Shown here piece by piece: positions 20,129 to 20,337 of a DNA stretch of 64,000 nt (position 1 is its first letter; each line of letters opens with the position of its first letter). A model generated the notes under the pieces. That model was not told where the DNA came from and made no database searches. It worked only from the letters and a program-made list of their open reading frames with translations. Source of the stretch: Eledone cirrhosa (Eukaryota); NCBI GenBank assembly GCA_964016885.1, contig OZ024740.1, forward strand, positions 125,984,001-126,048,000, read 5' to 3'. A program made the position numbers and the translations under genes.

Positions 20129-20133
<5 letters not shown>

Positions 20134-20337
20134 GTTATTCCGGGTTGAATCGGAGGTAACCACAGTAAGTAAGGTACTCAATACATTGCAGAGTATAAAA
20201 GTTTTAATATAGATGAGATTCTACAGGACTAGAACTGTTTCATTCTTTAGAAATCATCAGGAATCTCAGAGATTCCTGATGATTTCTAAAGAATGAAACA
20301 GTTCTAGTCCTGTAGAATCTCATCTATATTAAAACTT
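20129..20337. mobile_element. Miniature palindromic PLE derivative: two back-to-back hammerheads plus tail
   Basis: Perfect palindrome 20199-20337 centred on A20268, unique ~70-bp tail on the left, (TA)n on both sides. Confidence 0.85.
20269..20321 (+). ncRNA. Type I hammerhead (mirror copy at 20215-20267 on minus strand)
   Basis: GAGATTC-CTGATGA-TTTCTAAAGAAT-GAAA-CAG-TTCTAGTC-CTG-TA-GAATCTC: 7-bp stem I, intact core, GUA triplet. Confidence 0.85.

Follow-up and report, generated by a model that had tools for sequence, protein, structure and literature searches.

We have analysed a stretch of 64,000 nucleotides from Eledone cirrhosa (assembly GCA_964016885.1, contig OZ024740.1, positions 125,984,001 to 126,048,000 of the forward strand), referred to here as the window, which at positions 20,129 to 20,337 carries a palindrome with a hammerhead ribozyme on either strand. 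The feature is real. It belongs to a kind of arrangement known from Penelope-like elements (PLEs), but its form is new and very regular and is informative about mechanism. The unit consists of two 5'-truncated PLE ends joined head to head in a TA repeat, and it is probably formed anew at each insertion by run-off at the RNA cap. This reading draws on the parent element, the target, the one-sided tail, a sharp stop, variable centres, a TATA box and an extra G, from which the steps of the mechanism are reconstructed. The sharply ending stubs likely record reverse transcriptase (RT) running off the capped start of its RNA, and as such are a clue to how PLEs are copied.

The palindromic unit

The perfect inverted repeat has arms of 69 bp each (20199-20267 and 20269-20337), a 1-nt spacer (A20268) and zero mismatches, as the preliminary description of this DNA had stated. 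Folded as a hairpin the unit reaches -111.3 kcal/mol (z = -28), and none of 200 shuffles was equally stable. Its parts are the following.

20086..20129, no strand: (TA)n target microsatellite, left flank; window sequence, and flanking (TA)n in fetched copies
20130..20198, minus strand: PLE tail of 69 nt, on one side only; matches to a tail 24-mer, and the junction of tail and open reading frame (ORF) in locus L073 and 102 matches
20199..20266, minus strand: direct copy, hammerhead plus 3' extension, contiguous with the tail
20266, minus strand: putative transcription start (+1), the first base of stem I
between 20222 and 20221, minus strand: putative cleavage site of the direct copy
20267..20269, no strand: junction C-A-G, a non-parental G (sense) per arm plus one untemplated A/T; the parent has C here
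20270..20337, plus strand: inverted tail-less copy with hammerhead, ending at the putative second priming site (+67/+68)
20338..20348, no strand: (TA)n target microsatellite, right flank; window sequence

The end of the tail on the 20130 side would be the first priming site. It had been proposed that each arm begins exactly at stem I; the arms do stop there, but the outermost G of each (20269; C20267 on the other arm) is absent from the parent, and on both arms this extra G was likely copied from the cap. What was taken for a tail hairpin is an ordinary PLE tail; 20130-20198 folds no better than shuffles (z = -1.25 and -0.76). The parent's TATA box and ORF start are both missing from the unit.

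The parent element and its ribozyme

A parent copy (L069) was found to contain an intact 758-aa open frame between two ribozymes, with an RT, a Cys linker and a GIY-YIG domain, and with the motifs LYRDD and YKC...YIG. Its protein has 611 homologues, the best at 45% over 98%, while Pfam gave a weak GIY-YIG match to the frame (E 0.019, below cut-off) and no RVT match. The frame also holds motifs of the Hydra clade as defined by Craig et al. 2021 (PMC8557442), namely RWR, DKT, CNCLNKEAC (the CxCX5C linker), CDLC (CxxC) and CMH (CxH); a CCHH motif, judged by eye, is absent from it. Pseudo-long terminal repeats (pseudo-LTRs, pLTRs) with a hammerhead, partial tandems, an inverted 5'-truncated copy and a one-sided tail are all present, the last two being a combination already known from PLEs (PMC8557442). 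The order in the parent is TATAAATA (the TATA box), 22 nt, stem I, ribozyme, tail and ORF. Judged from sequence, by its motifs, target and ribozyme, the parent is a Hydra-clade, (TA)n-targeting, endonuclease-positive (EN+) PLE.

On the plus strand of the window the hammerhead is formed by stem I (20269-20275/20315-20321), CUGAUGA (20276-20282), GAAA (20295-20298), a stem III of 4 bp with a self-complementary loop, and a GUA cleavage triplet ending at A20314. It is mirrored on the minus strand, in agreement with the earlier claim of a ribozyme on either strand. Stem II has 3 bp and is closed by U.U in place of the G10.1-C11.1 pair. The core CUGANGA, GAAA and NUH and all three stems are present, as in a type I hammerhead, and stem I covaries between subfamilies. 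Since an Rfam scan gave no hammerhead match, neither at the gathering score nor at E<=10, the ribozyme is called from its core motif together with the covariation of its stem between subfamilies; matches to Rfam microRNA (miRNA) families were far below gathering score and reflect the hairpin only. The predicted folds are -7.1 kcal/mol for the ribozyme monomer, -10.5 for an alternative and -12.8 for a stem III self-dimer, and PLE ribozymes have been described as weak, dimeric or protein-assisted (PMC11167929, PMC4209133). From the predicted energies it is plausible that in read-through RNA the long hairpin (-111 kcal/mol) would outcompete the ribozyme fold (-7.1) and silence the ribozyme. The open frame of the element starts directly after the predicted cleavage site (L069 6238, L073 5690), and the preceding stop codon spans the cut. 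Many distant relatives (L239-L315) share the U.U closing pair of stem II and have a T-rich tract with YAG directly before the ribozyme.

Proposed mechanism

The pLTR would act as a TATA/initiator (Inr) promoter from which a capped RNA starts at the first base of stem I and continues through hammerhead, tail and ORF. The element's RT-endonuclease may then nick both (TA)n strands and prime two complementary DNAs (cDNAs) on one uncleaved RNA, at +134 (the tail end) and at +60 to +67. One cDNA would arrive at the cap after 134 nt and the other after about 67 nt; a C would often be placed opposite the cap G and an untemplated base added, and the 3' ends of the two cDNAs would anneal by 0-4 nt or be end-joined before repair finishes the insertion. 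The product is probably a dead end, because it is without promoter and ORF start. It resembles the minus-strand strong-stop DNA of LTR elements, a short cDNA off the RNA 5' end, when strand transfer does not follow; the Eledone product differs in having neither tRNA primer nor integrase.

A sharp stop at stem I

Positions are numbered from the tail end (R1), which puts the start of stem I at R134. A tail 24-mer has 6,982 exact matches in the 3.0-Gb assembly that was searched, and the first 100 tail matches on contig 1 served as a tail-anchored sample. Three internal copies were omitted from the count of direct arms (leaving 97 of the 100) and L122, a false inverted match, from that of inverted arms; L217 and L229, for which no row was obtained, were left out of later counts. 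In 94 of the 100 copies (TA)4 adjoins the tail; the sample shows a direct copy that has the tail and differs in length from locus to locus, and 60 loci have a neighbouring inverted copy that is tail-less. Arm ends fall in R120-135 in 45 of the 97 direct arms and in 45 of the 60 inverted ones, with a mode at R133, and only 5 and 2, respectively, fall in R136-151. Per nucleotide, the stop rate at R132-135 was 0.138 for direct and 0.289 for inverted arms, about 55 and 130 times that at shorter lengths (0.0025 and 0.0022); beyond the hot spot the rates were 0.0025 and 0.0063.

In the parent, 30 nt separate the TATA box from the A further downstream that begins stem I (R134), and CCAGATT surrounds this start, which we take to be Inr-like. 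For the same genome 15 distinct spacers were listed, with a search pattern that selected for TATAAA, and in 10 of them the TATA box precedes CUGA by 36-39 nt. More distant relatives were drawn from metagenomes (77 loci, 46 with a ribozyme, of which 41 were counted, one per locus and with enough flank). Among these 41, TATAWA occurs 37-48 nt before CUGA in 10, with 0, 2, 1 and 0 in the remaining bins. In 14 an Inr-like word is found no more than 12 nt away, against 2-7 elsewhere; the looser YYANWYY was not enriched.

Among the 100 non-G ends listed, the base that follows +1 in the cDNA was C in 81, A in 15 and T in 4 (hand tally), and in 43 of those with C it is not ascribable to the other arm. 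In the second subfamily C follows +1 in 52 of 68 (hand tally, about 29 unambiguous), where a fold-back of stem I, considered as the source of the extra base and rejected, predicts A or T. An untemplated G was shown to mark capped L1 and SVA RNAs (PMC4859970).

Two arms, probably from one RNA

The inverted arms end at R62/68 (31 of 60) or R75 (20 of 60), both TA-like. It was found that the two arms of a copy agree at the polymorphic position R114 in 39 of 40 copies, where 19 mismatches would be expected if the templates were independent (p ~1e-10), and at R82 in 45 of 45. Private changes are nearly all one-sided, and therefore conversion is not ongoing. Passage beyond the hot spot is likewise coupled between the arms (both 9, neither 50, a single arm 1; p 7e-10).

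Concordant arms could also be produced if a single cDNA ran off the RNA 5' end, snapped back and extended to the TA-like sites at +60/+67, later deletions at the apex making the arms unequal. Mirrored rare variants (L013, L095, L111) pointed to such a snap-back at first, and near-equal long arms fit it as well; it now ranks second, and we regard it as unlikely. In 24 of 60 copies the inverted arm exceeds the direct arm by more than 2 nt, while in 15 it is the shorter of the two, and a full inverted arm (R132-133) stands beside a direct arm stopping at 54-113 in five copies, whereas the reverse was seen in none. Moreover, junctions with spacers of 0-1 nt exist, and the zero-spacer palindromes L060, L110 and L125 are not obtainable directly from a hairpin primer. 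The extra G of the window copy is present on both arms, and two start sites are known in vitro from another PLE (PMC11167929).

Other explanations and their weight

It may be asked whether the stop marks a structural or processing boundary, at which a bound protein or the folded ribozyme would halt either RT or an exonuclease working from the 5' end, or whether splicing to a 3' site at helix I sets the end of the RNA. The parent has poly-T and CAG directly before ATTCC, YAG is enriched within 12 nt of CUGA in the relatives, and a Penelope intron of Drosophila virilis is reported to end at helix I (PMC4209133). RT would, however, meet the 3' strand of stem I (R84-89) first, and few ends lie there (R88-92: four direct, two inverted); these six ends likewise give a stop at the ribozyme cleavage site a minor part at most. 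No constant upstream exon is seen after the stop, and a boundary explains neither the TATA spacing nor the extra G, so that we give this explanation little credence.

A minimal non-autonomous element was one of two suggestions in the preliminary description. Such an element would resemble a short interspersed nuclear element (SINE) or a miniature inverted-repeat transposable element (MITE), and one master or a few would have spread the 210-bp palindrome in unchanging form. The 110 copies with the exact centre seemed to agree with it, as did a search with the unit itself, which returned 2,067 candidates of which all 40 scored were near full length and 97-100% identical. (TA)n was present on both flanks in 30 of the 30 best fetched copies. 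Selection by score, however, biases that search to the same centre, and the uniform family was an artefact, tail-anchored sampling having shown varied centres. The genome has 4,840 junctions at the ribozyme that are head-to-head. They belong to at least two subfamilies, the 50 loci listed show many different centres, and the exact centre of the window unit accounts for 110 of the junctions (2.3%). In 15 rows of newly fetched loci with this centre, the central base, read relative to the tail, was A in 8 and T in 7, and the centre occurs on at least five haplotypes with different 3' ends. Because the exact centre is found in both orientations and on at least five haplotypes, the palindrome was made anew and not inherited from a master; given also that the unit is without promoter and ORF-start motif, a non-autonomous element is highly improbable. 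The other suggestion, a recent doubly truncated PLE insertion, was right about the identity of the unit but not in taking it for a chance event, since it is a stereotyped product made repeatedly, and the 110 copies show that this centre is no one-off. The 5,474 parent-type arms that were counted include a satellite and were not used as copy number. Contigs of other runs contain none that bridges an arm of the window unit to its flank; they do have strand-switch joints at or near the start of stem I (L073 5728-5736), which may be artefact or real, and where depth falls, a fall that is not to be read as copy number. In the 77 metagenome loci, which were fetched by ORF and are short, no head-to-head ribozyme junction was seen. 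Self-priming on an antisense template, the published interpretation of head-to-head pLTR junctions in Adineta vaga (PMC3846280), is the least probable of all, as it predicts neither a stop 30 nt past the sense TATA box, nor an extra sense G, nor hot-spot copies whose tail enters the ORF start.

Several observations weigh against cap run-off. The commonest end, R133, is one base short of the predicted +1. The TATA box is present in only about a quarter of the distant relatives, 22 of the 41 have a T-rich tract plus YAG at the same place, and the D. virilis intron mentioned above ends at helix I. The first tally of the extra base is biased, because its search pattern left out G and required A at a later position. 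The cap signal is weaker in the 100 copies sampled without this bias, C after R133 being the second base in 15 of 41 arms and the first in 12 of 41. Long copies often have near-equal arms (140/140, 146/145, 289/287), which fits cDNA snap-back too, and the concordance of arms could be due in part to subfamilies active at different times. Finally, none of 23 ORF-bearing copies stops in the hot spot (two stop at R138 and R140), which capped-monomer templates alone leave unexplained.

Templates of stubs and of ORF-bearing copies

A tail running into the ORF start was found in 102 matches. Seven of the 30 such loci examined have little ORF sequence, and three of these seven stop in the hot spot. 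L201 is a hot-spot, zero-spacer palindrome whose tail continues into the ORF start, and in L212 three units that span +1 to ORF +190 follow one another in tandem; on account of these tail-ORF hot-spot copies, the template of the stubs is taken to be the 5' end of the ORF RNA. Copies with at least 900 nt of ORF behave differently from stubs at R120-135 (0 of 23 against 45 of 97, p 6e-6), with 19 passing beyond and 4 stopping earlier. This suggests that productive, ORF-bearing copies use a template without a capped end. This could be a circle, as proposed previously on the assumption that the ribozyme cleaves the RNA and the ends are ligated (PMC4209133), or else read-through of a tandem or a template jump of high efficiency. 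We tentatively raise the possibility of two template classes. Capped linear RNA, starting exactly at the hammerhead, would give rise to dead-end, strong-stop palindromes only, and a circle closed by ligation after hammerhead cleavage at both pLTRs would let RT proceed from the tail via the promoter region to the ORF and into partial tandems, although we would not consider this the probable outcome. Tandems of 211, 191 and 146 bp across ribozyme, tail and ORF start (L211, L212 and L213) were also observed, and resemble repeated template jumps or the copying of small circles.

Comparison with known systems

The Hydra clade (PMC8557442) resembles the Eledone element in having an RT followed by GIY-YIG, RW(K/R), DKT, the CxCX5C linker and CxxC/CxH around E and N, as well as a pLTR hammerhead, a (TA)n target, an inverted 5'-truncated copy and a tail at one end. 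The Eledone element differs in its repeat period of 5.4-6.0 kb (L069, L073; with a microsatellite-rich 3' region), as against less than 3 kb, and a fixed truncation that yields thousands of two-ribozyme palindromes is not described for the Hydra clade in the accessible part of that report. Within the microsatellite region of the element, at L061 1523-4432 on the minus strand, a different RT and GIY-YIG ORF is nested (a 969-aa frame including a microsatellite-coded part).

In a recent study of Poseidon of Anolis carolinensis (PAc) it was established in vitro that both target strands are nicked and extended on uncleaved RNA (Frangieh et al. 2024, PMC11167929). Two internal start sites bound the tail at the pLTR-ORF junction, and the first 172 nt of the ORF are required (PMC11167929). 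The two start sites, extension of both strands, pLTR-ORF template and uncleaved RNA fit the Eledone products, in which the tail measures about 67-74 nt and priming involves TA microhomology. PAc belongs to another clade, however, its reactions were in vitro, and the accessible part of the report gives no cap run-off or head-to-head product.

Head-to-head inverted pLTRs, palindromic junctions and a pLTR promoter were also described for A. vaga (PMC3846280), where TATA and Inr were noted, and for D. virilis Penelope (PMC2377424). Those families have few copies, and antisense self-priming was invoked for them. Furthermore, the D. virilis promoter is TATA-less and internal (PMC2377424), whereas the Eledone TATA box precedes +1, and run-off copies lack it. 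L1 twin priming (PMC4859970) is similar in that two primers on one RNA lead to an inversion and in the extra G that arises at the cap; in L1 inversions, however, the parts of the RNA that are copied differ, and in Eledone one stretch of 67 nt is copied into both arms.

Animal non-LTR retrozymes (bioRxiv 10.64898/2026.07.22.740005; PMC7229834) are likewise short, non-coding, PLE-derived and endowed with a type I hammerhead. They are head-to-tail tandems, whereas the window unit is head-to-head, single and dispersed and is thus not a retrozyme. Unlike the window unit, the Eledone family also forms true tandems, in 78-bp and 1.07-kb arrays. The former is a retrozyme-like, head-to-tail satellite of the same hammerhead (about -12 to +65) at G000:C28 from 30,497,105 (L232-L238), with 1,489 unit junctions, all on one strand, and is present in contigs of other runs too. 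The latter (L071, G000:C1:83,679,400-83,689,300) is a tandem of element 3' ends of about 1.07 kb, each with TATA box, ribozyme and tail, linked via the element's own (TA)n. Of the open papers that literature searches returned, none was seen to describe, in its listing or in the parts consulted, a cap run-off hot spot at a PLE ribozyme; Repbase or Dfam could already list the family.

Other palindromes in the window

Five further palindromes (39315-39473, 41916-42245, 63451-63651, 11503-12146 and 13416-13501) lie beside or around (TA)n, with arms 69-98% identical, and no hammerhead core was found in these five. They are possibly ends of other PLE families. The family of the palindrome at 39315 recurs in the flanks of L008, L015 and L018. 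The window also has long inverted repeats of 98% identity, 42410-46333 / 48502-52472 and 35588-36288 / 38329-39177.

Significance

The regeneration of pseudo-LTRs, the origin of head-to-head inversions and the role of the hammerhead in PLEs are open questions in the literature (PMC2377424, PMC3846280, PMC8557442, PMC11167929). The reaction products of the Eledone family are dated and number in the thousands. Their stop is precise to the base, they bear what looks like a mark of the cap, and stubs contrast clearly with ORF copies, all of which makes the circular-template proposal (PMC4209133) testable. For annotation it should be kept in mind that such palindromes resemble MITEs or miRNA precursors and are neither. 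Were the two template classes to hold true, the ribozyme would be the element's escape from its own 134-nt strong stop, and the perfect hairpin stubs, present in thousands, would be a by-product able to feed the double-stranded RNA pathways of the host.
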